NCBI GenBank assembly: GCA_965248455.1
Contig: OZ252105.1
Span: 200,993 to 264,992, forward strand
DNA from: Dehalococcoidia bacterium
Lineage (GTDB): Bacteria; Chloroflexota; Dehalococcoidia; Lucifugimonadales; Australimonadaceae
DNA: 64,000 nt
Direction of reading: 5' to 3'
Position 1 is the stretch's first letter, and the number at the start of each line of letters is the position of its first letter. The notes below the pieces were generated by a model, which was given only the letters and a program-made list of their open reading frames with translations, was not told where the DNA came from and ran no database searches. The position numbers were made by a program, and so were the translations under genes. Of this stretch, positions 4,874 through 59,900 are shown piece after piece.

Positions 4874-6139
4874 CTAGGCGAAATTCGCGTCGATCTCCGG
4901 GGCGAGTTGCGCCTCGATCAATGGCTTCAGGTTCGGCTTGTCCCTGAACGGTCCTCCCGTAACCTCGTAACCGGGGAAGTAGGAGTGCTCCTGCGGGAGG
5001 GTGATGACGCCCTTGTCCTCGCGGTGGACGTTCATCGGCTCGCCGCCGTCCTCGACGATCTGCATCTGCTCCTCCAGCATCTTGCGATAGAGGATGATGC
5101 CCACGTCCGTTACACCCAGGGCCTCGGTCGTGCGGTCGCTGATGGGGCCCTGCATGATCCAGGCGGCCTGATCCTGCCCCAGCACCCAGTCGGCACGGAT
5201 GCGGCCGTCGTCCTTGAAGACGTTCTCGTAGACGTAGGGAATCTCGGTCTGCTCGATTACCTCTCCGGGGTCGGGCACACGCACGCGCAGCACGATGTGG
5301 TAGGTGTGCGTGTCGTCCATGGGGACGCGCATCTGGAAGGCGTGGCTGCGCTGCTGGCCTACGCGGAGGATGTTGGGGAACAGCACCGGGTGGCCGATGC
5401 GCCACCACTCGTTCTCCTCCGTGTCGCCCTGCATCAGCCGACGCTTGATGACGCCGTACTCGAAGCGGTCGAAGCCGACCTTGACCTCGTGGCGTCCACG
5501 AGCGCCGTCGCCCTGCATCTGCTTCTTCCACTGTTCGCGCTCTTCCACGGGCTTCTCCATGCCGAGGACGTAGGAGCCCCAGTAGTTGTGCAGCCATTCG
5601 AAGTGGACGGGGTCGAGGGAGTTATCCATGCACTGGAGCCAGTTGCACGGCAGTTCCATGGCGATGACGCGACGCTCGACGCCCTCCCACATGAGGATGT
5701 CCCACTGGGGGAGCATCGGCGCGGGGGCTTCGCCCATGTAGGCCCAGACGATCCCTGAGCGCTCCTGGACGGGGTAGGCCTTGATGCGCACCTTGTCCTT
5801 GAATTTCGAGCCTTCCGGCTCCGAGGGCTGATCCATGCACTGGCCGGTCTCATTGAATATCCAGCCGTGGTAGGCGCAGCGGATGCCGTTCTCCTCAGGG
5901 ATGCCGTAGGAGAGGTTCGCCTTCCGGTGGGCGCAGGAGGGCTCGATCAGCCCCAGCGTGCCCTTTGCGTCGCGGTAGAGAACGAGGTCTTCGCCCAGGA
6001 TGCGAACCTCTTTCGTTGGGTTGTCAGCGGTGAGCTCGCCGCTCGGCGAGATGGGATGCCAGTAGTGGCGCAGCAACTCGCCCATCGGTGTGCCCTTGCC
6101 GACACGAGTGAGCCGTTGGTTCTGTTCCATCGTAAGCAT
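4874..6139 (-). CDS. Rieske [2Fe-2S] aromatic ring-hydroxylating oxygenase alpha subunit, paralog 1 (subfamily A)
   Basis: CAHRK...CAYHGW Rieske motif and NSLDPVHFEWLH iron motif. 421 aa. GGGAGGA RBS. Confidence 0.9.
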   Translation of the reverse strand: MLTMEQNQRLTRVGKGTPMGELLRHYWHPISPSGELTADNPTKEVRILGEDLVLYRDAKGTLGLIEPSCAHRKANLSYGIPEENGIRCAYHGWIFNETGQCMDQPSEPEGSKFKDKVRIKAYPVQERSGIVWAYMGEAPAPMLPQWDILMWEGVERRVIAMELPCNWLQCMDNSLDPVHFEWLHNYWGSYVLGMEKPVEEREQWKKQMQGDGARGRHEVKVGFDRFEYGVIKRRLMQGDTEENEWWRIGHPVLFPNILRVGQQRSHAFQMRVPMDDTHTYHIVLRVRVPDPGEVIEQTEIPYVYENVFKDDGRIRADWVLGQDQAAWIMQGPISDRTTEALGVTDVGIILYRKMLEEQMQIVEDGGEPMNVHREDKGVITLPQEHSYFPGYEVTGGPFRDKPNLKPLIEAQLAPEIDANFA

Positions 6140-6267
6140 CGGGAGTCCTCCCTCTCAGTGTGTGCTCGTAATGACTACATCCAAGCTTCTGTGTGCATCT
6201 TACTCCAAACGGGTAAGTCAAGGGGTAGGGGGTTCAGCAGCACTTGGACGTTGGGATGCCAGGCGTG

Positions 6268-6390
6268 GCGAAACTTTAATTCAGTCTCATTTAGTCTCAT
6301 TCCGTCTCATTTCCTGTCGTCCGAACCCTCACCCTTGCCCTCTCCCAGAGGGCGAGGGGATCTGCCTTCCAAACCAGGGATGCGAGGTTC
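6268..6390 (+). repeat. mosaic repeat: module E (3 x 10-nt GTCTCATTTN) + module A + 5' part of module B, cut by IS30
   Basis: E flanks (gcgaaactttaattca / cctgtcgtc) match 7612-7667. A matches 4804-4849. B (gggatgcgaggttc) continues at 7418. Confidence 0.8.
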
Positions 6391-7417
6391 GCTGGATTCA
6401 CAAACGAAGTGCAACATCAGATTAAGGTGTTGCCATGGGATACACACAGGTCACCATTGAGGAACGGTGTGAGATTGCCCGCCTACGTGCCGCGGGCACC
6501 TCGATCCGGCAAGTCGCTGCAGGTCTAGATCGCGCGCCATCGACGGTTGCTCGGGAGCTGAAGCGCAACGCTTCACGCACCACGGGCTACCGGCCGTCGT
6601 ACGCGCAGGAGCAGTCCCGCGCGCGCCGCTGGTCCGGTTCCCGGTTGGAGCGGGATACGGCTCTGCGTGCCTGCGTCCTCGAACGCCTCGGTTGGGGTGG
6701 TCGCCGGAGCAGGTATGCGGGCATTTGGCGCGGGGGGCGGGCAGAACGGTCATCTCCTACGAGAGCATCTACCGGTTCATCTACGCGCAGAAAGCGCGGC
6801 ACAAAGACCACGGCTGGAGGCAGTATCTGCCGGAGGCGAAGTGGAAACGCGGCAGGCGTGTGCGCCAAAGGAGCAGTTCGGTCTCCTTCATCCTCGAGCG
6901 TCACTCGCTCGCCGAGCGCCCGCCCGCCGTTGCAGACCGACAGACCTTCGGCCACTGGGAGGCTGACCTGATGCAGTTTGGGAGGTCGGGGGCGGTGGTG
7001 CTGGTGCTGCACGAGCGGCACTCGCGCCTGATGATGGCCGTCCGGCTGCCTTCGAAGGAAGCAGGACCGGTCGTGAAGGCCATGGCGCGCCTCCTGGGGC
7101 CGTTGCCGCCGGAGTTCCGGCAGACGGTGGCGCTCGACAACGGGACGGAGTTCGTGCGGCATCATGAACTGCACGCCTTGGGGATCGAAACGTTCTTCTG
7201 CGACACGCACTCGCCGTGGCAGAAGGGGGGTGTGGAGAATGGGATCGGTCGGCTGCGTCGCGTGCTGCCCCGGAAGACGAACCTGGGAGAGATGTCTGAC
7301 GAGCGGTTTACGGGGCTGCTGCAGGGGTATAACAATACGCCGCGCAAGTGCCTCGGCTACCAGAGCCCATCCGAAATATTCTGGAGTCAAGTGTTGCACT
7401 TCAAATGTGAATCCACC
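6391..7417 (+). mobile_element. IS30-family insertion sequence (about 1.03 kb)
   Basis: Terminal inverted repeats g.tggattcaca...gaagtgcaaca at 6391-6416 and 7392-7417 (22 of 26 by hand). TTC is duplicated at 6388-6390 and 7418-7420. Joining the flanks restores an intact module B. Confidence 0.8.
6435..7415 (+). pseudogene. IS30-family DDE transposase, interrupted by a frameshift near 6690
   Basis: HTH N-terminus in frame 0 (…VLERLGWG), then GWSPEQVCGHL…HWEADLM…LDNGTEF…PWQKGGVEN in frame 2. The shift lies in the run ggttggggtgg. The frame has no stop inside the IS and reads on to 7918. Confidence 0.6.
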
Positions 7418-8070
7418 TTCCCGCCTTCGCGGGAACGACGAGGGGGGGTGAACCCTGGCCCTATTTGGCCCTGTTTGGCCTCGTTTACTCCTAGCGGCGA
7501 GGCTGAAAATGAGGCCACCGTGGCCTCATTTGGCACTGCGCTCACTCGTACGCGGTGGGCCAGTTGGCCCTGGTTGTGGCCTTGGTTGGCCTCGTCAGGA
7601 GTGCCCGGAGTGACGAAACCTTTAATTCAGTTGCATTTGGTTGCATTTGGTTGCATTTCCTATCGTCTACGCGGGGCAGGGATGCGTCGTTCCCGCGAAG
7701 GCAGGAACGACGAAGACCAATGTAGCAGTCAGCGGCGCTATGCCGTAATGGGCAGTTGTCGTTGGTTTGGGGGTTGGGCGTATGTTGGGGATGGCATGGC
7801 GTTCGGGCGATTCGCGAACGGCCCCTACAATCTAGGCAGGGGCCTGACATGCGCGGTTCCCGTCTGCATGGGAACGACGTATGCGAACAATGTAGCAATC
7901 AGCGAGGCTATGGCGTAATGGGCAGTTGTCGTTGGTTCGGGGGTTGGGCGTATGTTGGGGATGGCATGACGTTAGGGTCGTTCGCGAACGGCCCCTACAT
8001 CCAGACAGGGGGCAGGGATGCGAGGTTCCCGCGTTCGCAGGGAACGACGGAGCCTTCGCAGGAACGACGG
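7418..8070 (+). repeat. about 650-bp non-coding repeat array: rest of module B, three sets of 3x short tandem repeats, a 12-bp-stem palindrome, module E, then (B-D)x2-B
   Basis: 3x TGGCCNNNTT at 7456-7485. Palindrome at 7507-7531. 3x GTTGGCC.. at 7563-7594. 3x GTTGCATTTG at 7630-7659. D copies at 7718-7829 and 7888-7999. B hairpins at 7672-7713, 7836-7879 and 8010-8070. Confidence 0.85.
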
Positions 8071-12564: not shown

Positions 12565-13038
12565 ATGACACACGTTACGCTGACAGTCAACGGCAAACGC
12601 CGCTCCGCAGAGGTCGAGGACCGCGACCTGCTGGTCGATCTGCTGCGCGAGAAGCTGCGCCTTACGGGAACGCACGTGGGCTGCGATACGAGTCAGTGCG
12701 GTGCGTGTACGGTGCTGGTCAACGGCGCGGCGGTGAAGTCGTGCTCGATGTTCGCGGTGCAGGCGGAGGGCGCGCGCGTCACGACGATAGAGGGCCTCGC
12801 GAAAGGCGAGACGCTCCATCCCATACAGCAGGCGTTCCATGAGCAGCACGGCTTACAGTGCGGCTTCTGCACTCCGGGGATGGTGATGATGCTGCACGAG
12901 TTCCTGAGGCGAAACCCCGACCCCTCCGAGCACGAGGTACGCTCCGCTCTGAGCGGGAACATGTGCCGCTGCACCGGCTACCAGAACATCGTCGCTTCCG
13001 CGCTGCATGCCGCGAAGACGATGCAGGCGCGAACGTGA
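12565..13038 (+). CDS. (2Fe-2S)-binding small subunit of the xanthine dehydrogenase/CoxS family
   Basis: [12 protein letters not shown] and CGFCTPG...CRCTGY cluster motifs. Confidence 0.85.
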
Positions 13039-13910
13039 TACCCGCGACGTTTGCCTATCACGCGCCCAAGTCGCTTCGCGAGGCGGTGCGTCTGCTGCGC
13101 GAGCACGAGGGCGAGGCGCGGGTCGTCTCCGGCGGGATGAGCCTGATCCCGGCGATGAAGCTCCGGCTCGTTCAGCCCGAGCATCTCGTCGATATCGGGA
13201 GGCTGGACGAGCTCTCCTATGTCCAGCGGGCGGGCGATGGTTTACGCATCGGCGCTGCGACTACCTACCGAGACATCGAGAAGTCGCGCATCGTGGAGAG
13301 TGTTGCGCCGTTGCTCACGGAGACCGTCCGTGTGGTGGGCGACCTGCAGGTGCGGAACAAGGGCACCATCGGTGGCGCGGCGGCGCATGCCGACCCCGCG
13401 GCTGACGTTCCTGCTGCGCTGCTTGCGCTGGAGGCGAGGCTTCGCGTCGTGGGCGGGCGGCGGTCGCGCGTCATCCCCGCGCATCGATTCTTCGTCGATG
13501 CTTACGAGACGGTCCTGGGGCCGACCGAAGTGCTGACGGAGGTGGAGATTCCCAAGATGCCTCCGCGCACCGGGTGGGCCTACGTGAAATTCGCGAACAA
13601 GGCGTCGCGGTTCGCCATCGTGGGCGTTGCTGCGTTGCTGACGCTCGACCGCAAGGGCGGCGTTACGCGAGCACGGATAGCCGTCACCGGCGCAGGGCCG
13701 AGGCCGGTTCGCGCCAGGGTGAGCGAGCGACTGCTGACGGGACGGTCGGCATCGAGCGCCGCTATCGAGGCCGCCGGGGATAGAGCCTCACGCGGGATGG
13801 AGTTCCTCTCGGACATACATGGTTCCGAGGAGTACCGCGAGCATCTGACGGGAGTCATCACGAAGCGTGCGCTCGAAACGGCAGCGGAGCGCGCCGGCAT
13901 CGCGTTGTAG
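13035..13910 (+). CDS. FAD-binding medium subunit of the xanthine dehydrogenase/CoxM family
   Basis: [28 protein letters not shown] motifs. GTG 13035 overlaps the coxS-like stop (GTGA). Confidence 0.8.
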
Positions 13911-13921
13911 GGAGGGGACTT

Positions 13922-14311
13922 ATGGCTATGACGGCAGAGCGCGTGATGAAGATTCTGGCGCAATCACGGGCGAAATCGGCGGAGCTTGGTTTGCTGACTA
14001 CGACGGCGGTCGTTGACGAGAACGGCCTGCTGCAAGGTCTGCTGCGGATGGAAGGCGCTCGCTTCACGACGGTGGAGATCGCGCAAGGCAAGGCGAGAGG
14101 GTGCGCCGGCGCTCGCCGCCCCACCGTGGAGATGGCGGAACGCGCGCAGCGCCCCGTTTTCATGTATCAGGCCATCCACCAGGGCTTCATCTTCGCGCAG
14201 GGCGGCGTGCCGATCATGGACGGCGAAGCGTTCGTTGGGGCGGTTGGCGTCTCAGGCGCAACCGACCCCAACGACGACGAGGCCATCGCTTACGCGGGCC
14301 TCGCCGATTAG
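13922..14311 (+). CDS. GlcG/HbpS-like (DUF336) heme-binding protein
   Basis: 129 aa. ...AQGGVPIMDGEAFVGAVGVSGATDPNDDEAIA is typical of the GlcG family. Confidence 0.75.
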   Translation: MAMTAERVMKILAQSRAKSAELGLLTTTAVVDENGLLQGLLRMEGARFTTVEIAQGKARGCAGARRPTVEMAERAQRPVFMYQAIHQGFIFAQGGVPIMDGEAFVGAVGVSGATDPNDDEAIAYAGLAD

Positions 14312-14728: not shown

Positions 14729-15340
14729 TCAACCCCGGTTGTCCCACTTGTCCCAGTGCGTTACCTCGGAGGAGGGTCGGCGGGTCGTTGGGCCGTAGTT
14801 ATGCCCATCCTGCGGCCAGCCCAGGGGGATCATGGCGGCGGTTACCCAATCGTCCGGCAGGCCGATGGCCTCGCGGATCTGGGGCTCGAAACCTCGGCGC
14901 ACGCGCGTCGTCAGCACGCTGCCGAGCCCGTAAGCTCGCGCGGCGAGCAGCATGTTCTGCACGGCGGGGTAGATGGACGCGCCGTGATGCACATCCGTTC
15001 CGGGGTGGTGCGTCACGGCCAGTATCCACACAGGAACGTCCATGACGTGCTGCGCGAGGTAGTCCGCCGACGCAGCGGCGCGCTCCTCGGAGGGAGTCGA
15101 CGCTTCGCCGTGGTTCGGGCGGGCGGTCGCCGGGTAGTGCTCGGCGATGATGCGCTTGGTGGCCTCATCCTTGATGACGACGAACCCCCACTGCTGCGAG
15201 TTCCCGCCGTTGGGGGCGCGTATGCCTGCGTCGATCACCTTGCGGACGAGGTCATCCGGGACAGGGTCGGGTTTCAGGTAGCGCAGCGCTCGCTGCGTGT
15301 ACATGGCATCGAACAGACCGATATCTTCACTCATTGTCAC
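14729..15340 (-). CDS. nitroreductase family protein
   Basis: RALRYLKPDPVPDDLVRKVIDAGIRAPNGGNSQQW is a typical nitroreductase N-terminus. Confidence 0.85.
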   Translation of the reverse strand: MTMSEDIGLFDAMYTQRALRYLKPDPVPDDLVRKVIDAGIRAPNGGNSQQWGFVVIKDEATKRIIAEHYPATARPNHGEASTPSEERAAASADYLAQHVMDVPVWILAVTHHPGTDVHHGASIYPAVQNMLLAARAYGLGSVLTTRVRRGFEPQIREAIGLPDDWVTAAMIPLGWPQDGHNYGPTTRRPSSEVTHWDKWDNRG

Positions 15341-15429: not shown

Positions 15430-16662
15430 ATGCTGACCACTGATATGAATGACCGCTTGACGCAGGTTGGCCCGGGGACGCCGATGGGCGGATTGATGCG
15501 CCGCTATTGGCATCCGATAGCCGCCAGCGTAGAGCTCACCGCCGACAACCCGACGAAAGAGATTCGCCTGCTCGGCGAGGACCTGGTGCTGTACCGCGAC
15601 GCCAAGGGCACGGTCGGATGCATCGAGCCGTCCTGCGCGCATCGCAAGGCGAACCTCTCCTACGGCATACCTGAGGAGAACGGCATCCGCTGTGCGTACC
15701 ACGGCTGGATATTCAACGAGACCGGCCAGTGCATGGACCAGCCCTCGGAGCCGGAAGGTTCGAAGTTCAAGGACAAGGTGCGCATCAAAGCGTATCCCGT
15801 CGAGGAGAAGGGCGGCGTCATCCACGTCTACATGGGCCCCACGCCGGTTCCCGTTCTGCCGAACTGGGACCTCTATCAGTGGGAGGGCGTCGAGCGCTCC
15901 ACCTACGCGGTGATGCTTCCGTGCAACTGGCTGCAGTGCCACGAGAACTCGCTGGACCCCGTCCACTTCCAGTGGCTGCACCGCTACTACGGCATGTGGC
16001 GAGCGGCCAAGATCATGGGAGAGGAGACCCGCGAGGAGTTCGACCGGATATCGGCGGCTCGGGGCAGGGCGCACGTCAAGATCGGATTCGACCGCTTCGA
16101 GTACGGCATCATCAAGCGTCGGATGCTGGAAGGCGAGGATGAGAACAGCGAATGGTGGCGCATCGGCCACCCGATCCTGTTCCCGTACACGTTGCGGGTA
16201 GGGCAGGAGCGATGGTTCGAGTTCCAGCACCGCGTGCCCGTGGACGACACGCACACGCTCCATTTCGGCTACACGATCCGCGTCCCGGATCCGGGCGAGA
16301 CGATCGAACCTGCGCCGATGGTTCACGACCCCAGGCCCGCTTTCTTCGATAACGGCCGCGTGAAAGACGACTGGGTGGTGGGGCAGGATCAGCTCGCGTG
16401 GATCATCCAGGGCCCGCGGATGGACCGGAGCACCGAGGCGCTCGGCGTTACGGACATCGGGCTTATCATGTTCCGCAACCTGCTGAACGAGCAGATCCAG
16501 ATCGTGGAGGACGGCGGCGATCCGCTGAACGTTCACCGTCAGGAGAAGGAGATCATCGAGCTGCCCACGGAACATGCGTACTTCCCCGGCTACGAAGTTA
16601 CGGGAGGGCCGTTCGCGGGCTTGCAGCCCGGCCCTGTGGAGCTCGAACGCTCGCTCCTCTGA
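15430..16662 (+). CDS. Rieske oxygenase alpha subunit, paralog 2 (subfamily A)
   Basis: CAHRK...CAYHGW and NSLDPVHFQWLH. GGAGGA RBS before ATG 15430. Close to paralog 1. Confidence 0.9.
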   Translation: MLTTDMNDRLTQVGPGTPMGGLMRRYWHPIAASVELTADNPTKEIRLLGEDLVLYRDAKGTVGCIEPSCAHRKANLSYGIPEENGIRCAYHGWIFNETGQCMDQPSEPEGSKFKDKVRIKAYPVEEKGGVIHVYMGPTPVPVLPNWDLYQWEGVERSTYAVMLPCNWLQCHENSLDPVHFQWLHRYYGMWRAAKIMGEETREEFDRISAARGRAHVKIGFDRFEYGIIKRRMLEGEDENSEWWRIGHPILFPYTLRVGQERWFEFQHRVPVDDTHTLHFGYTIRVPDPGETIEPAPMVHDPRPAFFDNGRVKDDWVVGQDQLAWIIQGPRMDRSTEALGVTDIGLIMFRNLLNEQIQIVEDGGDPLNVHRQEKEIIELPTEHAYFPGYEVTGGPFAGLQPGPVELERSLL

Positions 16663-17177: not shown

Positions 17178-17435
17178 TTACAGAATCAAGCGCCTCGGTT
17201 TCTTGGACGCGTATCTGAGGACGGCGTGGTTCTTGGGCACTCCCTTGTTATCCATCTCCTTCAAGACGCCTTTCAATGTCTTGTGGGTAGCCACAATCGT
17301 GCCCTTGTAGACTGCCACGTAGCTGTCAGGGTACTTCTTGCGCACCTGTGGCCAGATAGAGCTGAGATAGTCGCCGTCTTCACGGAACTGCGTGTGCGTC
17401 GCCAGATCAAAGCTCGGTATGCTCTCGGTAGTCAT
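17178..17435 (-). CDS. small partner protein (DUF5678-like), copy 1
   Basis: 85 aa. ...KKYPDSYVAVYKGTIVATHKTLKGVLKEM... AGGAG RBS. Homologous by eye to 48206-48502. Confidence 0.55.
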   Translation of the reverse strand: MTTESIPSFDLATHTQFREDGDYLSSIWPQVRKKYPDSYVAVYKGTIVATHKTLKGVLKEMDNKGVPKNHAVLRYASKKPRRLIL

Positions 17436-17592
17436 GGTCAGTGACTCCTAATCCTTCTCTCTTCGTCGTATGACTTCCCCATAGGAGAATTCATTTAGCA
17501 TGATAGCAAACGCGGACGCTCGGGACGCAGCGGGTTGTTGTTGCGGAGTGGGTTTCGGTGATGCGGAGGTTGATCCATGACGAGTGCTCTGT

Positions 17593-17628
17593 TTGACAGG
17601 CCCCTTGAGTTAGTCACATACTTAGTCA
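17593..17628 (+). promoter_or_regulatory. candidate phd-vapC promoter with direct-repeat operator
   Basis: TTGACA (17593-17598), 18-nt spacer, CATACT (17617-17622). TTAGTCA is repeated at 17610-17616 and 17622-17628. Confidence 0.35.
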
Positions 17629-17650
17629 GGATGCCCATCAAGGAGCCGCG

Positions 17651-17881
17651 ATGTTAACGGTGAACGTGCACGAAGCAAAGACCCACTTGTCACGGTTGCT
17701 GGCGAAAGTCGAGGCTGGCGAGAACGTCATCATCGCCCGCAGCGGCAAGCCGGTTGCGCGGTTGGTGGGATACCAGCGCCAGGGTAAACCGCAGTTCGGC
17801 TCCTGGAAGGGCCGGATATCGCTTGACGATAGCTTCTTCGACCCACTCCCGGAGGAGGAGTTGGCCGCTTGGGAGAGATGA
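17651..17881 (+). CDS. type II antitoxin, Phd/YefM family
   Basis: MLTVNVHEAKTHLSRLLAKVEAGENVIIARSGKPVARLV is the canonical Phd N-terminus. Confidence 0.8.
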   Translation: MLTVNVHEAKTHLSRLLAKVEAGENVIIARSGKPVARLVGYQRQGKPQFGSWKGRISLDDSFFDPLPEEELAAWER

Positions 17882-17884
17882 GCA

Positions 17885-18271
17885 TTGCGGCTGCTGCTCG
17901 ATACTCACGCGTTCATATGGTGGCTTGCCGGAAGCGAACGGCTGCCGGTCATCGCCCGCCGCGCCATCGGTGACGAATCGAACGACATACTGATCAGCGC
18001 AGCGTCTGCCTGGGAGATTGCCACCAAGCATCGTCTCGGCAAGCTTCCGGGAGCCGAAGCCCTTGCGTACGACGTTGCCGGAGCCATTGCCGACGAGGGC
18101 TTTGAAGAGTTGCCCATCACCATTGAAGACGCTGCACACGCGGGAAGATTGCCCGGCTCCCATCGCGACCCCTTCGACCGGATGCTCATTGCGCAAGCGC
18201 TGAGGCGCGACCTGACGCTCATATCGAGCGAATCGTTGTTCGACCAGTACAGCGTCAGCCGTATCTGGTGA
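17885..18271 (+). CDS. vapC: type II toxin, PIN-domain VapC
   Basis: LLLDTHAFIWW...SAASAWEIATK...DPFDRMLIAQA PIN acidic residues. TTG start. Confidence 0.85.
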   Translation: MRLLLDTHAFIWWLAGSERLPVIARRAIGDESNDILISAASAWEIATKHRLGKLPGAEALAYDVAGAIADEGFEELPITIEDAAHAGRLPGSHRDPFDRMLIAQALRRDLTLISSESLFDQYSVSRIW

Positions 18272-37855: not shown

Positions 37856-37859
37856 CGAC

Positions 37860-44736: not shown

Positions 44737-44781
44737 CCGTCAGTTATCCCTCAATGTTGATGTAGTGTCTGGCGGGGCGGG

Positions 44782-48206: not shown

Positions 48207-48502
48207 CAGTGAATCCCGAAAACGAGGGACGGAGGCAACTGCAACGGCCCTTTCCCTACTTTGCGAATGAGGTACGGCCCGCGACCGAAGCGGCGCATCG
48301 CCACCCGGGCCGCATCCTCAAATGCCGGATAGGTTCCGATGAGTTCCCCGTCACGCACGATGACCCACTCGCCGAAGTGGTCGGTTTCCAGCAAGTCCTG
48401 CATCCGCTCGTAGGCGGCAATCTCTTCACTCAACTTGGCCATGGCGTCCCCCGCCGGTTGTTCGCCAACCTCATGGGTAGATTGCTGCCTATTAGCGCGC
48501 AT
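48206..48502 (-). CDS. small partner protein (DUF5678-like), copy 2
   Basis: …DHFGEWVIVRDGELIGTYPAFEDAARVAMRRF… aligns with copy 1. Start is either 48502 (overlapping the Rieske stop) or ATG 48442. Confidence 0.5.
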   Translation of the reverse strand: MRANRQQSTHEVGEQPAGDAMAKLSEEIAAYERMQDLLETDHFGEWVIVRDGELIGTYPAFEDAARVAMRRFGRGPYLIRKVGKGPLQLPPSLVFGIH

Positions 48503-49785
48503 CAGCCTTTTGCTGCTGCAGCCTCGCGTCTGTCCAGGATGGGGCTGTACATCGTGGCGGCACCCTGGCGAGAGGACGTGTCCACGTAGTTGTGCTGCTC
48601 CGTCATGAACGGGATGTAGGCGTTCTGCTCAGCGTCTCGGTAGACCTCCATGGGGTCTCCGCCGTCCTCGACGATGCGGATGTTGTCCTCCAGCATCTGC
48701 CGGAACATGATGATGCCCTTGTCGGAGCGTCCCAGATGCTCGCCGGTGCGGTCCGCGATATCGCCCTGCGTGATCCACGCAGCGGGGTCTTGCGAGGAAT
48801 TGCTGCGCAATTCCGGGTAGACCGGCTGACCATTCACGTCCAGCATGGGAACGGGCGGGCGGTAGAAGGGAATCTCCTCCGCTGTCTGTTCCTCGTCGCC
48901 TGCGACCATCGGGTAGCACGCCACCCACCAGTGGCCGGTCGTGTAGTCGTCGATGGGGGTGCGAATCTGGAACGCGGGGCCCATCGAGAAGCTGCCCCGG
49001 TACGTGCCGTCGGTGATGTTGAAGCCGTCGCCGCCCTGGCGCAGGTAGTTCGGGAAGATGATGGGGTGCCCATCCTTCCATTCGGTGTCTTCCTCGGAGC
49101 CGCCTTCCCAGATACGGCGCTTGATGATGCCGTGCTCGAACGCGTCGAAGTGGATGACCTTGTGAGGGCGGCGCGTACGCCGATCCTCATCGCCGTTCAT
49201 CTCTCGGATGAAGTTTGCCCACGCGACGTGCAGCCATTCGAGGTGTACGGGGTCGAGCGAGTTCTCCTGGCACTGCAGCCAGTTGCACGACAGTTCAGCG
49301 TAGCCGATGTCGCGCAGGACGCCGGTTGCGGAGAAGACATCGTAGTTGGGGATGAGCGGCACGGGCGTGGGGCCCATGTAGGCGAACACCAACCCAGCCT
49401 TCACCTCCACCGGGTACGCCTTCATCTTGATCTTGTCCTTGAACCGCGCCTCCGGGTCCTCCGTCTCCTCGTACGGCTGCTCGATGCACTGCCCCGTCTC
49501 GTCGTACAGCCATCCGTGATACGGACAGCGCAGACCATGCTCCTCCGGTATGCCGTAGATCACGTTCATGCGCCGGTGAGCGCAGTGCGGCTCCATGAGG
49601 CCGAATGTGCCGGAGCGATCCTTGTACAGGATGAGATCCTCGCCCAGGAGGCGCACCTTCATCGTCCACTTGTCGTTCATCTGCGAAACGGCGGCGATGG
49701 GGTGCCAGTAGCGGCGCATCAGCTCGCCCATCGGCGTGCCGGGGCCGACTCGGGTATAGCGGTCGTTAGCTTCCTGTGTCAGCAT
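48502..49785 (-). CDS. Rieske oxygenase alpha subunit, paralog 4 (intermediate subfamily)
   Basis: CAHRR...CPYHGW and NSLDPVHLEWLH. AAGGAGAG RBS. Confidence 0.9.
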   Translation of the reverse strand: MLTQEANDRYTRVGPGTPMGELMRRYWHPIAAVSQMNDKWTMKVRLLGEDLILYKDRSGTFGLMEPHCAHRRMNVIYGIPEEHGLRCPYHGWLYDETGQCIEQPYEETEDPEARFKDKIKMKAYPVEVKAGLVFAYMGPTPVPLIPNYDVFSATGVLRDIGYAELSCNWLQCQENSLDPVHLEWLHVAWANFIREMNGDEDRRTRRPHKVIHFDAFEHGIIKRRIWEGGSEEDTEWKDGHPIIFPNYLRQGGDGFNITDGTYRGSFSMGPAFQIRTPIDDYTTGHWWVACYPMVAGDEEQTAEEIPFYRPPVPMLDVNGQPVYPELRSNSSQDPAAWITQGDIADRTGEHLGRSDKGIIMFRQMLEDNIRIVEDGGDPMEVYRDAEQNAYIPFMTEQHNYVDTSSRQGAATMYSPILDRREAAAAKG

Positions 49786-49852: not shown

Positions 49853-51130
49853 CTATGCTCCCTGTGCTGCCCCCGCGGTGCGGGGTATGCTGCGCAGGCC
49901 TTCCCAGCTTTCCAACGTCTCATCCACGAGCGAGGCGACTGTTGGCTCGCCGGCCTCGACGAGCGTGTAGCCGAAGCGGCGGCGATTGCCGAACTTCACG
50001 TGCTCCAGCGGCAGGTGGATGGCCTCGTTCGTCGCAGGGTCGCGGAACGTGTTCATGGGGTCGCCCCCGTCCGCGACGAGTTGCGCCTGCTCCTGAAGGA
50101 GCTTGCGGAAGAGGATGATGCCCTTGTCCGACTCACCAAGATGTTCGAGGTTGCGCTTGGCGACGGGGCCCTGCGTTATCCACGCGAGGTAATCCTGGTT
50201 GAAGAGGATGTCGCTGATGTAGCGCCCCTCGTCGTTCTTGAGCGGGATGTAGCGGTAGGGGACGACGTCCTGACGCGGCGCCTGCGACCCAGGTGCGGGC
50301 CGCCAGGCGTAATAGGAGACGTGGTAGGTGTGCGTGTCGTCCGCGGGCACACGGAACTGGAAGGTGGAGCGTACCTCGTCCCCGACGAGCAGGATGTTGG
50401 GGAACATGATGGGGTGCCCCTCTGACCAGTCGTCGTCTTCCTCCGTGTAGCCTGCCTCGACGCGGCGCTTGATGATGCCGTGCTCGAAGACGTCGAATCC
50501 GATCTTCAGATGCGTGCCTCGCAGTTCAGGCAGTGCGTGGACGCCGTTGCGCTGCACGTTGGTGTAGTAGGCGTGGAGCCACTCGTTGTGAACCGGGTCG
50601 AGCGAGTTCTCCTGGCACTGCAGCCAGTTGCACGGGAGCTCCGATATGCAGACCTCCCGCACGGCGTTGTCCCAGGTCAGCTGCTCCCAACGCGGCAGCA
50701 GCGGCGCAGGCTGCGGACCCATGTATGCGAAGACGAGGCCTCCCAATTCCTGCACCGGGTAGCCCGCGATCTTCACCTTCTCCTTGAAACGTCCGTCCGG
50801 GTGCACCGTCTCCTCGAACGGCTGCTCTATGCACTGGCCGGTCTCGTCCATCATCCAGCCGTGGTACATGCAGCGCAGGCCGTGCTCCTCCGGTATGCCG
50901 TAGGTGAGATCGACCCTGCGATGCGGGCAGGCGCGCTCGATGAGTCCGAGCGTACCGGACTTGTCGCGATAGAGAACGAGATCTTCGTTGAGCAGGCGCA
51001 CTGGCTTGGTGGGGCGCTCGTTGAGTTCAGCGGTAGCGGCGATGGGATGCCAGTAGCGGCGCATCAGTTCGCCCATAGGCGTACCCTGACCTACTTTCGT
51101 AAGGTCTTCGTTGGCTTTGACGCTAAGCAT
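49853..51130 (-). CDS. Rieske oxygenase alpha subunit, paralog 5 (subfamily B)
   Basis: CPHRR...CMYHGW and NSLDPVHNEWLH. GGGAG RBS. Confidence 0.9.
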   Translation of the reverse strand: MLSVKANEDLTKVGQGTPMGELMRRYWHPIAATAELNERPTKPVRLLNEDLVLYRDKSGTLGLIERACPHRRVDLTYGIPEEHGLRCMYHGWMMDETGQCIEQPFEETVHPDGRFKEKVKIAGYPVQELGGLVFAYMGPQPAPLLPRWEQLTWDNAVREVCISELPCNWLQCQENSLDPVHNEWLHAYYTNVQRNGVHALPELRGTHLKIGFDVFEHGIIKRRVEAGYTEEDDDWSEGHPIMFPNILLVGDEVRSTFQFRVPADDTHTYHVSYYAWRPAPGSQAPRQDVVPYRYIPLKNDEGRYISDILFNQDYLAWITQGPVAKRNLEHLGESDKGIILFRKLLQEQAQLVADGGDPMNTFRDPATNEAIHLPLEHVKFGNRRRFGYTLVEAGEPTVASLVDETLESWEGLRSIPRTAGAAQGA

Positions 51131-51262: not shown

Positions 51263-51586
51263 TTAGTGGGCAGGCGCGTAGAGGGAGAGCTTCTCTTCAT
51301 CCAGGAGCTTGGCACGGCGCTCGACCCCCTCGACGGGGGATTGATCCCGCCAGAGTTGCCATCGCACTTCTAGGTTGAGCCAGACCTCGGCGCTCGTCCC
51401 GAAGGCGGCCCCTAGTTCTCTGGCTGTCTGGCTGGTGATTGCCCGCTTGCCATTGATCAGTTCGCTGACCTTCGGTTCGCTTCTGCCTAGAACCTTGGCG
51501 AGGTCGCGCTGAGTCCAGCCGCGTGCCTCGATCTCATCCTTGATGTACGCACCGGGAGGATATGCTTCCGCAACTGTCCGTTCCAT
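51263..51586 (-). CDS. higA: type II antitoxin HigA (XRE HTH)
   Basis: PGAYIKDEIEARGWTQRDLAKVLGRSEPKVSELINGKRAIT. Confidence 0.8.
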   Translation of the reverse strand: MERTVAEAYPPGAYIKDEIEARGWTQRDLAKVLGRSEPKVSELINGKRAITSQTARELGAAFGTSAEVWLNLEVRWQLWRDQSPVEGVERRAKLLDEEKLSLYAPAH

Positions 51587-51615
51587 GTCCTCGCCCTCGC
51601 GGCCTTGCGCCGGAT

Positions 51616-51912
51616 TCAGTGGTAATCGGTGACCTCTACCAAAACAACTCTGGAGCGTCCACCCGCCTTTTCAAGTTCGATGATGAGCCTGTATTGATCG
51701 TTCAGGCGCATCGAGTGCTGGTGGCTGCGGTTGCCGCGAAGCTTCTCGAAACGCAACGACCGCATCTGCCGCAGATCCCGCTCGTCCTGGGCCGCCCGAA
51801 TCCAGCCGATGACCTTGCGGTAACTCTTGACCACGCCAACGGGCAACCCCGCGTCAACCCCAGGGTCAGTCTCCAAGCGATCCAGTTCTTCATCCGCGAA
51901 CTCGATATCCAC
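51616..51912 (-). CDS. higB: type II toxin HigB / RelE-ParE superfamily
   Basis: …SLRFEKLRGNRSHQHSMRLNDQYRLI… killer-protein motif. Lies upstream of higA, the usual HigBA order. Confidence 0.8.
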   Translation of the reverse strand: MDIEFADEELDRLETDPGVDAGLPVGVVKSYRKVIGWIRAAQDERDLRQMRSLRFEKLRGNRSHQHSMRLNDQYRLIIELEKAGGRSRVVLVEVTDYH

Positions 51913-52111: not shown

Positions 52112-52495
52112 GTGTACGACATGGCCACCTACAGCATAAGAGAATTCAAAACCAGAGTCAGCGGCATACTCAGGAACCTCGACAATGGCGAAGAAGTGAT
52201 CATCACCCGCCGCGGGGAACCGTGCGCTAGGCTCATGCCTGTCCAGCGTTCCATTGGGGGAAGGCCTTCACTCGGCACACTCAGGGGAGCCTTGGCCAAC
52301 CTGCCGGACGCGAGTTACGAGGACTTCCAGAAATCTACCAGCTCGATCCCCACTTCCTGTAATCGAGACAGAGACCGCCACGAGGGCGGTCTCCACTCTA
52401 CCGGCGAAACGTCAGGGATAGCGCCATACGAACGCGCCCGCACTATCGGCCCAGCGTGGCCTCCACGCCGAGGTAGTCTACCCAGGTGCGCATGA
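52112..52495 (+). CDS. orphan Phd/YefM-type antitoxin; only the N-terminal 70-80 aa look genuine
   Basis: MATYSIREFKTRVSGILRNLDNGEEVIITRRGEPCARLMPV. The ORF then runs through a hairpin and 53 nt into the 3' end of Rieske paralog 6. No toxin gene follows. Confidence 0.4.
   Translation: MYDMATYSIREFKTRVSGILRNLDNGEEVIITRRGEPCARLMPVQRSIGGRPSLGTLRGALANLPDASYEDFQKSTSSIPTSCNRDRDRHEGGLHSTGETSGIAPYERARTIGPAWPPRRGSLPRCA
52369..52393. other. conserved GC hairpin downstream of Rieske paralog 6
   Basis: cagagaccgcc acgag ggcggtctc. The same sequence occurs at 58500-58525. Confidence 0.6.
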
Positions 52496-53711
52496 CCTCC
52501 TCGATGTCGGTTACGGCGGTGGTGTCGCCCGCCTCAGGCGGGATGTAGCGTGCCTGCGCCCGCATGCCGAACTTGACCTTCTCCACAGGGGCGTGGAGCA
52601 GCTGATCAGGGTCGTTGCGGAAGACGTTCATCGGGTCGCCGCCGTCCTGGGCGATGGCGATGTTACGCTGCAACTGCTTACGGAACAGGATGATGCCGAC
52701 GTCCGACGCGCCGAGCTTCTCCTTCTCGCGCTTGGCGATCGGACCCTGAGTCGCCCACGCCATGTAGTCCTGGTTGAACGTCCAGTCGACGATGAAGCGG
52801 CCCTCGTCGTCCTTGAGGGGGACGTAGCGGTAGGGCACGGTCTCCTGTCGCGGGGCGGCTGCGCCGGGAGCGGCGCGGTAGTTGTAGATCGACACATGCA
52901 GCGTGTTGGAGTCGTCGACGGGTACGCGGAACTGGAAGGTGGCGCGCGCCTCGTTGCCCACGAGCAGGATGTTGGGGAAGAGGACGGGGTGCCCCTCGGC
53001 CCACTCGTCGTCGGTTTCGTCCTTCCCGAACAACAGGCGGCGCTTGATGATGCCGAACTCGAATTCGTCGAACCCGATATTCATATGCTTCCGGGATGAA
53101 CCCTGTTGGGAAACGGCGATGCGATCCGTGTTGCGGTACGCGCCCATGTACGCGTGAAGCCATTCGACGTGAACCGGGTCGAGCGAATTCTCCTGGCATT
53201 GCAGCCAGTTGCAGGGGATCGTCGTGATCGCGATGTCGCGGACGGCGTTATCCCACAGCAGGTGCTCCCAGCGCGGCAGCAAGGGGGTGGGCTGCGGGCC
53301 CATGTAGGCGAAAACAAGCCCTGCCATCTCCTGCACGGGGTAGCCCGCGATCTTCACCTTCTCCTTGAAGCGTCCGTCCGGGTGAACGGTCTCCTCGAAC
53401 GGCTGCTCGATACACTGGCCGGTCTCGTCCATCATCCAGCCGTGGTACATGCAGCGCAGACCGTGCTCCTCCGGTATGCCGTAGGAGAGATCGACGCGGC
53501 GATGCGGGCAGGCGCGCTCGATGAGTCCGAGCGTACCGGACTTGTCGCGATAGAGCACCAGGTCCTCGCCCATGAGTCGCACGGCCTTGGTGGGGCGTTC
53601 GTCGAGCTCGGCGGTAGCGGCGATGGGATGCCAGTAGCGGCGCATCAGATCGCCCATCGGCGTACCGGGGCCGACCTGTGTGAGTTCTGCGTTCTCCTGG
53701 GTGCTCAACAT
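52443..53711 (-). CDS. Rieske oxygenase alpha subunit, paralog 6 (subfamily B)
   Basis: CPHRR...CMYHGW and NSLDPVHVEWLH. GGAGGGA RBS before ATG 53711. Confidence 0.9.
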   Translation of the reverse strand: MLSTQENAELTQVGPGTPMGDLMRRYWHPIAATAELDERPTKAVRLMGEDLVLYRDKSGTLGLIERACPHRRVDLSYGIPEEHGLRCMYHGWMMDETGQCIEQPFEETVHPDGRFKEKVKIAGYPVQEMAGLVFAYMGPQPTPLLPRWEHLLWDNAVRDIAITTIPCNWLQCQENSLDPVHVEWLHAYMGAYRNTDRIAVSQQGSSRKHMNIGFDEFEFGIIKRRLLFGKDETDDEWAEGHPVLFPNILLVGNEARATFQFRVPVDDSNTLHVSIYNYRAAPGAAAPRQETVPYRYVPLKDDEGRFIVDWTFNQDYMAWATQGPIAKREKEKLGASDVGIILFRKQLQRNIAIAQDGGDPMNVFRNDPDQLLHAPVEKVKFGMRAQARYIPPEAGDTTAVTDIEEVMRTWVDYLGVEATLGR

Positions 53712-57359: not shown

Positions 57360-58337
57360 ATGCCGAACCTGAAACTGACGATAGCAATTTCCCCTTGGGA
57401 CCGCATCAACCCCCTTCTGATCGGCGAGGTGAAGCCCGAGGGCATCACGCTGGAGCACCATAACATCCCGCTTCAGGACATCTGGCGTCGCCAGCTCCAG
57501 GACAACGAGTTCGACATCTCCGAGATGTCCATGTCCTTCACGCTGCAGGCCATCCCGCTGGGCTGGGACTACCGCGTCCTGCCCGTCTTCCACAACCGCA
57601 CCTTCTCCTACGTGAACACGATGATTCGCCTCGGATCCGGCATCCGGCAGGACCACCCCGAGGATATGATCGGTAAGCGCGTTGGCGTCGTCGATTACCA
57701 GATGACAGCGGCGCTCTGGACGCGAGGCATCTTGGAGCACGAGTTCGGCGTCGCCCCGCGCGGCGTCGAGTGGTTCCAGGGCAGGCTCGACCCCGCCATC
57801 CCCGGCCAGACGGAGCCCTTCCGCCCGCCGGAGGGAGTCGTGATCAACCCGCCGCCCAACAACCTCGAACAGCTGATGGCCAACGGCGCGCTTGATGCGA
57901 TGTACTCGGTCCATCCGCCCACGAGCGGCCCGCTGGCCGACCGCTCGCGCTTCGTTCCGCTGTTCGCGGACGGCGTCGCGGAATCGGAGCGTTACTACGC
58001 CAGGACGGGCGTCTTTCCCGCTCATCACGCGACGATCGTCCGTAAGAGCATGCTCGACGCGCATCCGTGGGCCGCGAAGAGCCTGCTCGATGCGCTCGTC
58101 GAGGCGCAGCGGCTGACGATGGAGCGCGCGATGAAGGAGCCGCCGTCAGCCCTCGTCTTCTCGCGGGAGATGATGGAGCGCCAGCGCGAGACGTTCGGTG
58201 ACAATCCCTACGCCTACGGCCTCGCCGCCAACGCGACGACCATCGACCTGGTCCAGACCTTCGCCGTCGAGCACGGCATGACGCCGCAGAAGCAGCCGCT
58301 CGCGGGGTTCATCGCGGCAGGGGCGCTGGATAGCTAA
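57360..58337 (+). CDS. 4,5-dihydroxyphthalate decarboxylase-like protein, copy 2
   Basis: LKLTIAISPWDRINPLLIGEVKPEGITL…EFDISEMSMS…GKRVGVVDYQMTAALWTRGILEHEFGV fits my recollection of PhtD/Pht5-type decarboxylases. Confidence 0.75.
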   Translation: MPNLKLTIAISPWDRINPLLIGEVKPEGITLEHHNIPLQDIWRRQLQDNEFDISEMSMSFTLQAIPLGWDYRVLPVFHNRTFSYVNTMIRLGSGIRQDHPEDMIGKRVGVVDYQMTAALWTRGILEHEFGVAPRGVEWFQGRLDPAIPGQTEPFRPPEGVVINPPPNNLEQLMANGALDAMYSVHPPTSGPLADRSRFVPLFADGVAESERYYARTGVFPAHHATIVRKSMLDAHPWAAKSLLDALVEAQRLTMERAMKEPPSALVFSREMMERQRETFGDNPYAYGLAANATTIDLVQTFAVEHGMTPQKQPLAGFIAAGALDS

Positions 58338-58478: not shown

Positions 58479-58499
58479 CACGCATGTTCAACCCAAAAG

Positions 58500-58525
58500 C
58501 AGAGACCGCCACGAGGGGCGGTCTC
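58500..58525. other. conserved GC hairpin downstream of Rieske paralog 7
   Basis: cagagaccgcc acgagg ggcggtctc. Copy of 52369-52393. Confidence 0.6.
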
Positions 58526-58553
58526 GACTCAACTGCTCTGATGCACGCTGACC

Positions 58554-59900
58554 CTACAGAGGCCAGTTGTCCTTGATGTTGTCCACAGCGCCGACCTTGC
58601 CGCCGCCGGCAGCGCGCTCGGTGAGCTCATTCTCGGAAGCGGCAGGCGCCTTGTCGGGGAGATCATCCCACGTCTGCAGCACCTGGTTGATAAGCTCGGC
58701 GTCGCGGGAATACCCAGCCTCCCCGGGGATGTACTTCTTCGCGCGCTTCATCCCGAACTTCACGCGCTCCAGCGGAGCGGTGATGCCGCCCTCCGGCGCG
58801 GGTGAGCGGAAAACGTTCATCGGGTCGCCGCCGTCCGCCGTGATATCCATCTGATCGCGCAGCAGCTTGCGGTAGAGGATGAGCCCGCGGTCGGACTCGC
58901 CAAGGTGTTCGAGGTTGCGTTTCGCGATGGGGCCTTGCGTTGCCCACATCGTGTAGTCCTGATTGAAGACAACGTCCACGATCCAGCGGCCGTTCTCGTC
59001 CAGCAGCGGTACCTCACGGTAGGGGACGGACTCCTGCGTCGGGACTGGCTGACCGGGAGCGCCGTGCCATGTGTAGAGCGAGACGTGCAAGGTGTGCTCG
59101 TCGTCTATCGGCACGCGGAACTGCATGGTCACGGATACCTCGCTGCCCACCAGCAGGATGTTCGGCACGAACACCGGGTGCCCGTGCTTCCAGTCGTCGT
59201 CCTCCTCGGTGTAGCCCCTGAACACGCGGCGCTTGACCACGCCGTGATCGAAGATGTCGAAACCGATCTTCTCGTGCTTCGGCAGGTCGAGCAGCGCGCC
59301 CTTGAATCCGGCCCCCTGCTGGACGTACTGCCCCCAGTACGAATGTGCCCACTCGACGTGGACGGGATCGAGCGAGTTCTCCTGGCACTGAAGCCAGTTG
59401 CACGGCAAGTGCGATATCGCGATGTCGCGCACGGCGTTGTCCCAGGCCATCGGCTCCCACATAGGCAGGAAGGGAACGGGCTGCGGGCCCATGTACGCGA
59501 ACACGAGCCCGGCTGCGGCCTGCACCGGGTACCCCGCAATCTTCACCTTCTCCTTGAAGCGTCCGTCCGGGTGAACGGTCTCCTCGAACGGCTGCTCGAT
59601 GCACTGGCCCGTCTCGTCCATCATCCAGCCGTGGTACATGCAGCGCAGCCCATGCTCCTCCGGTATGCCGTAGGAGAGATCGACGCGGCGGTGCGGGCAC
59701 GCGCGCTCGAGGAGCCCCAGCGTGCCGGACTTGTCCTTATAGAGCACGAGATCCTCGCCGAGGAGACGGACGGCCTTCGTAGGCCGGTCGTCGAGTTCAG
59801 CGGCGGCGGCGATGGGATGCCAGTAGCGGCGCATCAGTTCGCCCATCGGCGTGCCCGGACCGACTTTCGTAAGGTCTTCGTTGGCTTTGACGGTGAGCAT
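58554..59900 (-). CDS. Rieske oxygenase alpha subunit, paralog 7 (subfamily B, longer C-terminus)
   Basis: CPHRR...CMYHGW and NSLDPVHVEWAH. 448 aa. GGAGAG RBS. Confidence 0.9.
   Translation of the reverse strand: MLTVKANEDLTKVGPGTPMGELMRRYWHPIAAAAELDDRPTKAVRLLGEDLVLYKDKSGTLGLLERACPHRRVDLSYGIPEEHGLRCMYHGWMMDETGQCIEQPFEETVHPDGRFKEKVKIAGYPVQAAAGLVFAYMGPQPVPFLPMWEPMAWDNAVRDIAISHLPCNWLQCQENSLDPVHVEWAHSYWGQYVQQGAGFKGALLDLPKHEKIGFDIFDHGVVKRRVFRGYTEEDDDWKHGHPVFVPNILLVGSEVSVTMQFRVPIDDEHTLHVSLYTWHGAPGQPVPTQESVPYREVPLLDENGRWIVDVVFNQDYTMWATQGPIAKRNLEHLGESDRGLILYRKLLRDQMDITADGGDPMNVFRSPAPEGGITAPLERVKFGMKRAKKYIPGEAGYSRDAELINQVLQTWDDLPDKAPAASENELTERAAGGGKVGAVDNIKDNWPL

Follow-up and report, generated by a model that had tools for sequence, protein, structure and literature searches.

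Ring-hydroxylating oxygenases (RHOs) have been grouped into five system types, all of which need a reductase of the three-domain ferredoxin-NADP reductase (FNR) type or of the glutathione reductase (GR) type (Kweon et al. 2008, PMC2358900). In sphingomonads and mycobacteria, the electron-transfer components are unlinked and shared, a situation described as 'numerical imbalance' and 'genetic discreteness' (PMC2358900). For the SAR202 lineage of the Chloroflexota, an expansion of alpha-subunit genes (COG4638) has been published, with up to 62 genes per ~3-Mb genome, the maximum being that of a sponge symbiont; most of these genes carry the annotation phthalate 4,5-dioxygenase or phenoxybenzoate dioxygenase, and the authors doubted that phthalates are the true substrates of these enzymes (Saw et al. 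2020, PMC6946804). Here we describe a stretch of 64,000 nucleotides (the window; C1:200993-264992) of a single-contig 2.80-Mb Dehalococcoidia/SAR202 genome (contig OZ252105.1, here C1), which carries seven genes for alpha-only Rieske oxygenases (RO1 to RO7) and no reductase of the phthalate dioxygenase reductase (PDR) type. Coordinates without prefix are window positions.

The seven genes are RO1 (4874-6139, minus strand, 421 aa), RO2 (15430-16662, plus strand, 410 aa), RO3 (20097-21374, minus strand, 425 aa), RO4 (48502-49785, minus strand, 427 aa) in tandem with RO5 (49853-51130, minus strand, 425 aa), RO6 (52443-53711, minus strand, 422 aa) and RO7 (58554-59900, minus strand, 448 aa); all had been proposed in an initial annotation of the sequence and were found at these positions and strands. 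The starts at 15430 (RO2) and 53711 (RO6) are internal starts of slightly longer open reading frames (ORFs) and match the MLT/MLS N-termini of the other proteins. The Pfam domain Rieske (PF00355) was detected in seven of seven proteins (E 2e-17 to 2e-19), and LigXa_C (PF19301) scored above the gathering cut-off in seven of seven, yet mostly with only profile positions ~207-258 aligned; no characterised equivalog was assigned to any of the seven by NCBIfam. Their alignment contains 136 invariant columns, including the CxH...CxxH cluster ligands and the iron motif NS(L/V)DPVHxEW(L/A)H, and the two ligand motifs (CxH...CxxH and DxxHxxxxH) that had been reported for all copies are thus invariant. 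Residues 1-386 of the phthalate dioxygenase PDO_KF1 were rebuilt from the HMMER alignment and mapped onto the seven, with residue roles taken from PMC8649396; each copy retains the bridging D178, the iron ligands H181, H186 and D343, and all four ligands of the cluster. No frameshifts or stops were found in the seven genes and no copy is degenerate, with domains and every metal ligand intact. The predicted lack of a beta subunit also holds, with no Ring_hydroxyl_B gene detected in the window by Pfam.

Among solved structures, a profile of the seven matched PDO_KF1 best (7FJL; 216 bits, E 5.5e-63, residues 1-386), followed by RO_CH34 (7FHR; 206 bits) and 9INA (173 bits, E 5e-50) and, after a large gap, by SxtT (78 bits), carbazole dioxygenase (72 bits), DdmC and NdmA (61 bits each), and KshA and CntA (43 bits each). 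With 32-35% identity, phthalate and isophthalate dioxygenases (PDO and IPDO) are the nearest relatives of known structure. Of the earlier label 'phthalate/KshA-type', the phthalate part is therefore retained and the KshA part dropped, as KshA structures align only with the Rieske domain (residues ~25-200; E 2e-10 to 8e-7, i.e. ~1e-10 at best). In a maximum-likelihood tree of 48 paralogs from the genome and a small reference set of four PDB entries rebuilt from alignments (PDO_KF1, 9INA, the carbazole dioxygenase CARDO, and SxtT), 19 paralogs group with 7FJL and 9INA, and the other 29 form a sister clade (clade II; support 93/84), to which the seven genes of the window all belong and in which no structure has been solved. 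RO1 and RO2 are sisters, as had been suggested (subfamily A); RO3, RO5, RO6 and RO7 (subfamily B) fall into a 14-member subclade with modest support (UFboot 81 / SH-aLRT 96, under the star threshold of the tree), and RO4, formerly called an intermediate, sits in a separate, third subclade.

The residues of PDO_KF1 that bind phthalate (Arg207, Arg244, Ser179, Ser182, Phe278, Phe280 and Phe339) are not conserved in the seven. Arg207 corresponds to a gap, Arg244 is replaced by I/I/V/D/E/E/H and Ser182 by F/F/L/L/N/V/V in RO1 to RO7, Ser179 is replaced by Pro and Phe278 by His, and Phe280 is variable; the alignment is gappy at 200-250, where a one-residue shift is possible for RO1 and RO2. The pocket positions 182, 244 and 280 hence vary between paralogs. 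The seven are relatives of phthalate dioxygenase, not phthalate dioxygenases proper.

Pairwise identity among the seven ranges from 48 to 70% (RO1/RO2, 67%; RO5/RO6/RO7, 68-70%), whereas the orthologues of RO4 to RO7 in other species of the genus are 86-93% identical (RO4, 91-93%; RO5, 87-90%). Because orthologues are this much more similar than paralogs, the duplications must be older than the species of the genus, with each copy kept, and we take them for old duplications maintained by selection. Rieske domains are generally the better-conserved part of such oxygenases. In this case, the mean identity of the Rieske domain versus the catalytic domain is 73% versus 48% among the seven and 66% versus 45% among the 29 clade members, a contrast in keeping with substrate pockets that diversified while the module receiving the electrons was conserved.

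The window is one part of a much larger inventory. A genome-wide Rieske scan gave 58 matches, exactly seven of them inside the window. With a hidden Markov model (HMM) made from the seven, 48 full-length alpha-only oxygenases were retrieved among the gene calls of the genome, and one more is concealed in a long frame (C1:117295-119469), for a total of ~49. There are also three classical alpha subunits, one of which adjoins a Rieske ferredoxin and the only beta subunit identified in the genome (C1:727018-727560). LigXa_C matches number at least 30-45 per genome in 22 of 22 genomes of the genus and in two sister genera, with no more than 42 candidates scored per genome; none were obtained in most other families of the order. 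The relatives retrieved with RO6 were all metagenome-assembled genomes (MAGs) labelled Dehalococcoidia, Chloroflexota or SAR202, and their labels indicate sponge and seawater assemblies.

No PDR-type reductase was detected in the window (Pfam) or in the genome (PF00175, PF00111 and tblastn). Genome-wide, PF00175 (NAD_binding_1) matched one protein, a two-domain Fpr-type ferredoxin-NADP reductase of 264 aa without a Fer2 domain (C1:748310-749104, single copy); PF00111 matched only six CoxS-type subunits, one SdhB-like and one FdhA/NuoG-like protein; and the Pyr_redox_2 matches were Lpd-like, TrxB, GltD and unrelated flavoproteins. PF14759 (Reductase_C, GR-type) had no match in any of the 22 genomes of the genus, this one included. 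In 15 other genomes of the genus, PF00175 gave exactly one match each, 14 of these being full Fpr frames of 252-354 aa, with a partial match only in one fragmented, 88%-complete MAG; PDR-type reductases are thus lacking in all 16 genus genomes tested. The oxygenase-poor relatives that were tested had a single PF00175 match of the same kind, and one had none. Searches by tblastn with the PDRs of Ralstonia and Burkholderia and with the FNR and ferredoxin of Peribacillus (see below) yielded no orthologue and only matches of 23% identity to Fpr and 27% to TrxB. No FNR-like frame that carries a plant-type Fer2 motif came out of a motif scan, which missed the known Fpr as well and was too strict to be informative by itself. 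Since neither a three-domain FNR-type nor a GR-type reductase is encoded, none of the five RHO types can be assembled from these genomes.

Several apparent candidates were rejected. Frames of up to 725 aa around some of the oxygenase genes might have contained fused reductase domains; the added parts proved to be Arg/Pro-rich read-through that precedes the MLT start, not domains. A GltD-like Pyr_redox_2 protein near two oxygenase genes (C1:2345498-2346961) is followed by a 1517-aa GltB and belongs to glutamate synthase, and a 307-aa Pyr_redox_2 protein (C1:1251524) has a CATC motif and is a thioredoxin reductase, not a TrxR-like FNR. Two Fer2 matches represent an SdhB-like (318 aa, C1:45775) and an FdhA/NuoG-like protein (942 aa, C1:749073). 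The initial annotation had reported neither reductase nor ferredoxin: the former statement stands for the PDR type, extends to the whole genome and to 15 other genomes of the genus, and is not overturned by a gene just outside the window; the latter does not strictly hold, for the window encodes a CoxS-type protein with [2Fe-2S] clusters (12565-13038) and a CoxM-type FAD protein.

Homologues 45-47% identical to RO6 were found by tblastn against plasmids in Ralstonia, Burkholderia/Caballeronia, Peribacillus and Polymorphobacter. The loci compared, on plasmids of Ralstonia sp. RRA.1 (NZ_CP146093.1), Burkholderia/Caballeronia (AP022308.1) and Peribacillus sp. R9-11 (NZ_CP133764.1), contain an oxygenase, a Gfo/Idh/MocA dehydrogenase, a class II aldolase, a PhtD-like protein and an electron donor. 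In Ralstonia and Burkholderia, the donor is an adjacent PDR-type protein of 315-324 aa (FAD_binding_6, NAD_binding_1 and Fer2), and Peribacillus has a 337-aa Pyr_redox_2 flavoprotein with, after it, an 81-aa ferredoxin that carries a single 4Fe-4S cluster, an arrangement not covered by the five RHO types that Kweon et al. defined. The Peribacillus locus (plasmid pA, 104105-108938), from a cultured member of the Bacillota from Arctic Ocean sediment, is a co-directional block that also includes an intradiol dioxygenase.

The corresponding genes of the window are those of the block at 58554-62220 on the minus strand, which starts with a Gfo/Idh/MocA dehydrogenase (61033-62220), continues with a PhtC-like class II aldolase/adducin protein (60028-60828; Pfam Aldolase_II) and ends with RO7. 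The dehydrogenase is 50% identical to the module gene of Peribacillus and 46% to that of Ralstonia, and the aldolase-II proteins of Peribacillus and Ralstonia match 60028-60828 best. The plasmid modules resemble this block in their helper genes and in their oxygenases, which are 45-51% identical to the clade of the window, and they differ from it in having an adjacent donor, of which there is none in the SAR202 module; by this comparison, the block is the SAR202 version of a cross-phylum module minus its donor. No biochemical characterisation of the Ralstonia, Burkholderia or Peribacillus modules was found in the literature. The donor is a PDR in the proteobacteria and Pyr_redox_2 plus 4Fe-4S ferredoxin in Peribacillus, so this clade of oxygenases evidently accepts different types of donor, including a simple Fe-S ferredoxin. 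The assumption that such oxygenases need a PDR-type reductase is thus borne out by the Ralstonia and Burkholderia homologues, but not as a universal need.

The companion genes named in the initial annotation were confirmed, and the reading placed on them, repeated phthalate-like steps, applies in part. The three Gfo/Idh/MocA dehydrogenases (the family of cis-dihydrodiol dehydrogenases) lie at 3509-4768 (plus strand, convergent with RO1; identified only by Pfam and by its BLAST cluster of 12 Gfo paralogs), at 18780-20084 (minus strand, 13 nt downstream of RO3 on the same strand) and at 61033-62220. For the latter two, the best PDB match over the full length is 7WZD, a 4,5-dihydroxyphthalate (cis-diol) dehydrogenase of known structure (E 9e-77 and 7.5e-93, respectively), whereas sugar-type members of the family score only ~E-16. 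A PhtD-like protein (57360-58337, plus strand) matches the 4,5-dihydroxyphthalate decarboxylase 9JP7 with E 5.9e-41, and a more distant one (37791-38783, plus strand; Pfam NMT1), previously placed at 37860, with E 1.3e-20. The aldolase-type protein at 60028-60828 reaches 117 bits (cut-off, 200) with the PhtC model NF053537 (3,4-dihydroxyphthalate decarboxylase family). A bicupin gentisate 1,2-dioxygenase-like protein (2386-3441, plus strand) scores 304 bits with TIGR02272 (E 1e-90), below the cut-off of 442, and is preceded by a fumarylacetoacetate-hydrolase (FAH) family gene (1471-2352, plus strand; Pfam FAA_hydrolase, E 4e-51), formerly taken to start at 1498. Such neighbours are present for RO1 (Gfo only), RO3 and RO7 and absent for RO4, RO5 and RO6.

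For all 48 oxygenases genome-wide, 6 of 12 Gfo paralogs have an oxygenase gene no more than three genes away (hypergeometric p=5.6e-4), and a screen of the 48 neighbourhoods for enriched families returned Gfo dehydrogenases, MFS transporters, Amidohydro_2 and short-chain dehydrogenase/reductase (SDR) genes. Amidohydro_2 is the largest paralog family in the genome (80 members, more than the Rieske family), with 14 of the 80 within three genes of an oxygenase gene; examples are C1:171947-173113 and the neighbours of the window at C1:199505 and C1:265729. The family includes non-oxidative aromatic-acid decarboxylases.

The explanation that we favour, with reasonable though not high confidence, is that the window encodes seven functional alpha-only oxygenases for carboxylated aromatic compounds, which are assisted by adjacent helper enzymes and supplied by shared, unlinked electron donors. 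The seven proteins would be homo-oligomeric Rieske non-heme-iron oxygenases from a clade that was expanded in SAR202 and is sister to the phthalate and isophthalate dioxygenases of proteobacteria. Each most likely would cis-dihydroxylate a different carboxylated aromatic that stems from organic matter, either dissolved or of host origin; a neighbouring Gfo/Idh/MocA cis-diol dehydrogenase would re-aromatise the product, PhtD-like, PhtC-like or Amidohydro_2 enzymes would decarboxylate it, and the ring would then be cleaved, for instance by the gentisate dioxygenase and FAH proteins at 1471-3441. The paralogs would have retained the Rieske domain that receives the electrons and diversified their catalytic pockets. 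In place of a dedicated reductase, a small shared set of unlinked carriers would deliver electrons in trans, and the best candidate chain would be the single Fpr feeding a 7Fe ferredoxin or one of the small Rieske proteins Fd-110 and Fd-112.

These carriers are encoded elsewhere in the genome. There is one 7Fe ferredoxin (FdxA, 78 aa; C1:1248865-1249101), and there are small Rieske proteins homologous to CarAc, BphF and TodB. The Rieske ferredoxins considered were Fd-110 (C1:729144-729476; best PDB match, the carbazole dioxygenase ferredoxin, E 2e-21), the CarAc-like Fd-112 (112 aa, C1:1859547-1859885; E 2e-12) and Fd-121 (C1:1400149), which was dropped as an oxygenase-specific donor, since it occurs also in a genus of the family that is free of these oxygenases. 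Fd-112 follows the oxygenase-rich genera in its distribution: clear orthologues are present in 20 of 21 other genomes of the genus as well as in one sister genus, but in none of the oxygenase-free relatives. We rank Fpr with the 7Fe or a Rieske ferredoxin as the likeliest shared supply for all paralogs, because [3Fe-4S] ferredoxins are established RHO donors (PMC2358900) and Peribacillus uses a simple Fe-S ferredoxin. The wider proposal, that the genus runs ~50 oxygenases per cell on an electron supply outside all five RHO types (Fpr with 7Fe or Rieske ferredoxin, or CoxS/CoxM) and that the Rieske domains of the paralogs would have co-evolved with this single shared donor, is put forward tentatively, at slightly less than even chances.

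A number of observations weigh against this explanation. Its substrates, products and donors, and likewise the type of reaction, are what we infer from sequence comparison; the phthalate-binding arginines are absent, and 'carboxylated aromatic' derives from neighbours and family, not from the pocket. Only RO1, RO2, RO3 and RO7 lie within three genes of a Gfo gene, and the Gfo neighbour of RO2 is the partner of RO3, on the opposite strand; RO4, RO5 and RO6 have no Gfo neighbour and could be monooxygenases or demethylases. No electron carrier was enriched in the screen of the 48 oxygenase neighbourhoods. Fpr is a housekeeping enzyme with no specific link to the oxygenases, because it is present in relatives that lack the expansion; Fd-110 adjoins the classical alpha/beta dioxygenase; and the gene for Fd-112 shares a conserved operon (C1:1859547-1861486) with an SDR gene and two for PTPS, which points to another role. 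Finally, the estimated completeness of the genome is 94%. The Fd-112 operon is kept across the genus and in the sister genus, and its gene content (PTPS, 6-pyruvoyl-tetrahydropterin synthase) suggests a Rieske-dependent pathway of a pterin type.

The strongest of the other explanations, which we nevertheless consider unlikely, is that several of the seven act as monooxygenases or demethylases on other compounds of dissolved organic matter or of sponges, for example on aromatics with methoxy groups or halogens, on betaines or on alicyclic acids. The non-conserved phthalate-binding residues, the variable pocket positions and the lack of an adjacent cis-diol dehydrogenase at RO4, RO5 and RO6 agree with this, as do the O-/N-demethylases and hydroxylases of the wider family (DdmC, NdmA, SxtT and KshA) and the doubts of Saw et al. 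(PMC6946804) about phthalates as real substrates. However, PDO and IPDO are the closest characterised relatives by a wide margin, RO1, RO3 and RO7 sit with homologues of cis-diol dehydrogenase and decarboxylase, and homologues of both are found in the conserved cross-phylum module; on these grounds we prefer cis-dihydroxylation of carboxylated aromatics.

Another possible source of electrons lies within the window: an orphan CoxS-type small subunit with two [2Fe-2S] clusters (12565-13038, plus strand; Pfam Fer2_2 and Fer2; NCBIfam matches to glyceraldehyde dehydrogenase gamma and XdhC-type subunits) and a CoxM-type FAD subunit (13040-13910, plus strand, start approximate, ORF listed as 12858-13910; Pfam FAD_binding_5 and CO_deh_flav_C). 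Together, perhaps with the nitroreductase-family FMN protein encoded between them and RO2 (14729-15340, minus strand, divergent from RO2; Pfam Nitroreductase, with a weak BluB-like NCBIfam match), they might act as a non-canonical NAD(P)H-to-Rieske reductase for RO2 and other paralogs. Situated ~1.5 kb upstream of RO2, the pair is the sole combination of flavin and [2Fe-2S] in the window; it has no Mo large subunit (CoxL) beside it in the window (Pfam) and, with FAD and two [2Fe-2S] clusters, would chemically equal what a PDR offers. We consider this very unlikely, as the genome has 11 CoxL versus 6 CoxS and 6 CoxM, so that most large subunits and two S/M pairs are orphans and the window pair more likely serves one of the 6-7 orphan Mo subunits. 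The CoxS and CoxM genes, with a GlcG/HbpS-like gene, form a set (12565-14311) that follows SDR and zinc-dependent alcohol dehydrogenase (Zn-ADH) genes on the same strand; they thus appear co-oriented with these genes, whereas an opposite-strand gene separates them from RO2. The second orphan pair (C1:1911655-1912964) is near no oxygenase gene, and CoxM is not enriched near oxygenases.

It is highly improbable that a canonical dedicated reductase exists and was missed, either in the unassembled ~6% of the genome, on a plasmid, or through divergence too great for the Pfam models. The completeness estimate leaves room for it, and the HMM searches begin with a loose first pass that can miss odd sequences; against this, the same result was obtained in congeners (15 for PF00175 and 21 for PF14759), many of them single-contig chromosomes, genuine module PDRs found nothing closer than Fpr by tblastn, and the motif scan, itself weak evidence, found no frame with FNR and Fer2. 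That the paralogs are decaying remnants which no longer need a reductase, as the missing partner genes and the mobile elements and toxin-antitoxin genes of the window might suggest, is scarcely credible in view of the intact reading frames, the invariant catalytic ligands, the much higher identity of orthologues than of paralogs, and the copy number, stable at 30-45 or more across the genus.

The window is part of a larger oxygenase-rich stretch, with ~14-15 of the ~49 alpha-only oxygenases between C1:117 kb and 282 kb, including C1:167211-181994 and C1:280202-281542 beyond the window. Within the window, the oxygenase genes are interleaved with mobile-element and toxin-antitoxin ORFs (6692-7918, 17178-18271, 25380-25799, 51263-51912 and 62855-63793), namely rve integrase-like (under the Pfam cut-off), PIN, HicB-like, HigB/HigA toxin-antitoxin and IS110 transposase ORFs; across the genome, 27 proteins make up the IS110-type cluster. 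The region has the look of a plastic catabolic island. Two EutA-like ATPases (520 and 506 aa) are encoded at 33323-36079 and 43216-45882, each gene preceded by one for a ~365-aa protein that gives a weak cupin match at best, and no ethanolamine lyase is found nearby; the 366-aa partner protein belongs to a cluster of 19 paralogs. Two paralogous proteins of 450-484 aa without Pfam match (27143-28495 and 28685-30139; a 13-member cluster) lie beside a TctA gene (30306-32363), and a 421-aa lipoprotein-like protein with a Pro/Thr-rich linker (C1:723160-724425) lies beside another (C1:724779-726899). These TctA-adjacent proteins may bind substrates for tripartite tricarboxylate transporters in a non-canonical form of that role.

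In the dark ocean and in sponges, few heterotrophs are as abundant as the SAR202 bacteria, and their oxygenase expansions are the main genomic argument for an oxidation of 'recalcitrant' dissolved organic carbon. This argument presumes working oxygenases, yet no canonical electron donor was found in the lineage; we regard the electron supply of SAR202 as a defined, testable question, not as a new kind of system. The donor has to be identified before any of these enzymes can be expressed and assayed, and hence before their real substrates can be found; it may prove simple, promiscuous and useful for Rieske biocatalysis. The modules of cultured Ralstonia, Burkholderia and Peribacillus, with their donors, offer a tractable entry to an otherwise uncultured clade of enzymes.

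In comparison with the PDO-type enzymes of type I-alpha (class IA; PDO_KF1/PDO_DB01, 7FJL and 7V25; 9INA/9IOY; RO_CH34, 7FHR), the seven are alike in being alpha-only and ~420-450 aa long with full-length homology, in identical Rieske ligands, 2-His-1-carboxylate ligands and bridging Asp, and in having a Gfo/Idh/MocA cis-diol dehydrogenase and a PhtD-like decarboxylase as genomic neighbours. They are unlike them in forming part of a sister clade, in a phthalate pocket that is not conserved, and in that the defining FNR_C-type (PDR) partner is absent from this and the other genus genomes tested. The BphA3/BphA4 and PhtAc/PhtAd systems of sphingomonads and mycobacteria (Kweon et al. 2008, PMC2358900) likewise combine many oxygenases with few donors encoded elsewhere, but they retain a GR-type or three-domain FNR-type reductase, and the SAR202 genus has neither. 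The COG4638 paralog expansions described before (Saw et al., PMC6946804; Colatriano et al. 2018, PMC6123686; sponge Chloroflexi, PMC6306507) concern the same lineage and the same phenomenon as the present genes; by word search, ferredoxin is not mentioned in the main texts of these three papers, nor reductase in the one checked for it. The paralog expansion itself is known, and what is added here is the genus-wide absence of canonical reductases, a clade without characterised member beside PDO and IPDO, and, through the comparison of modules, a donor-bearing counterpart in two other phyla.

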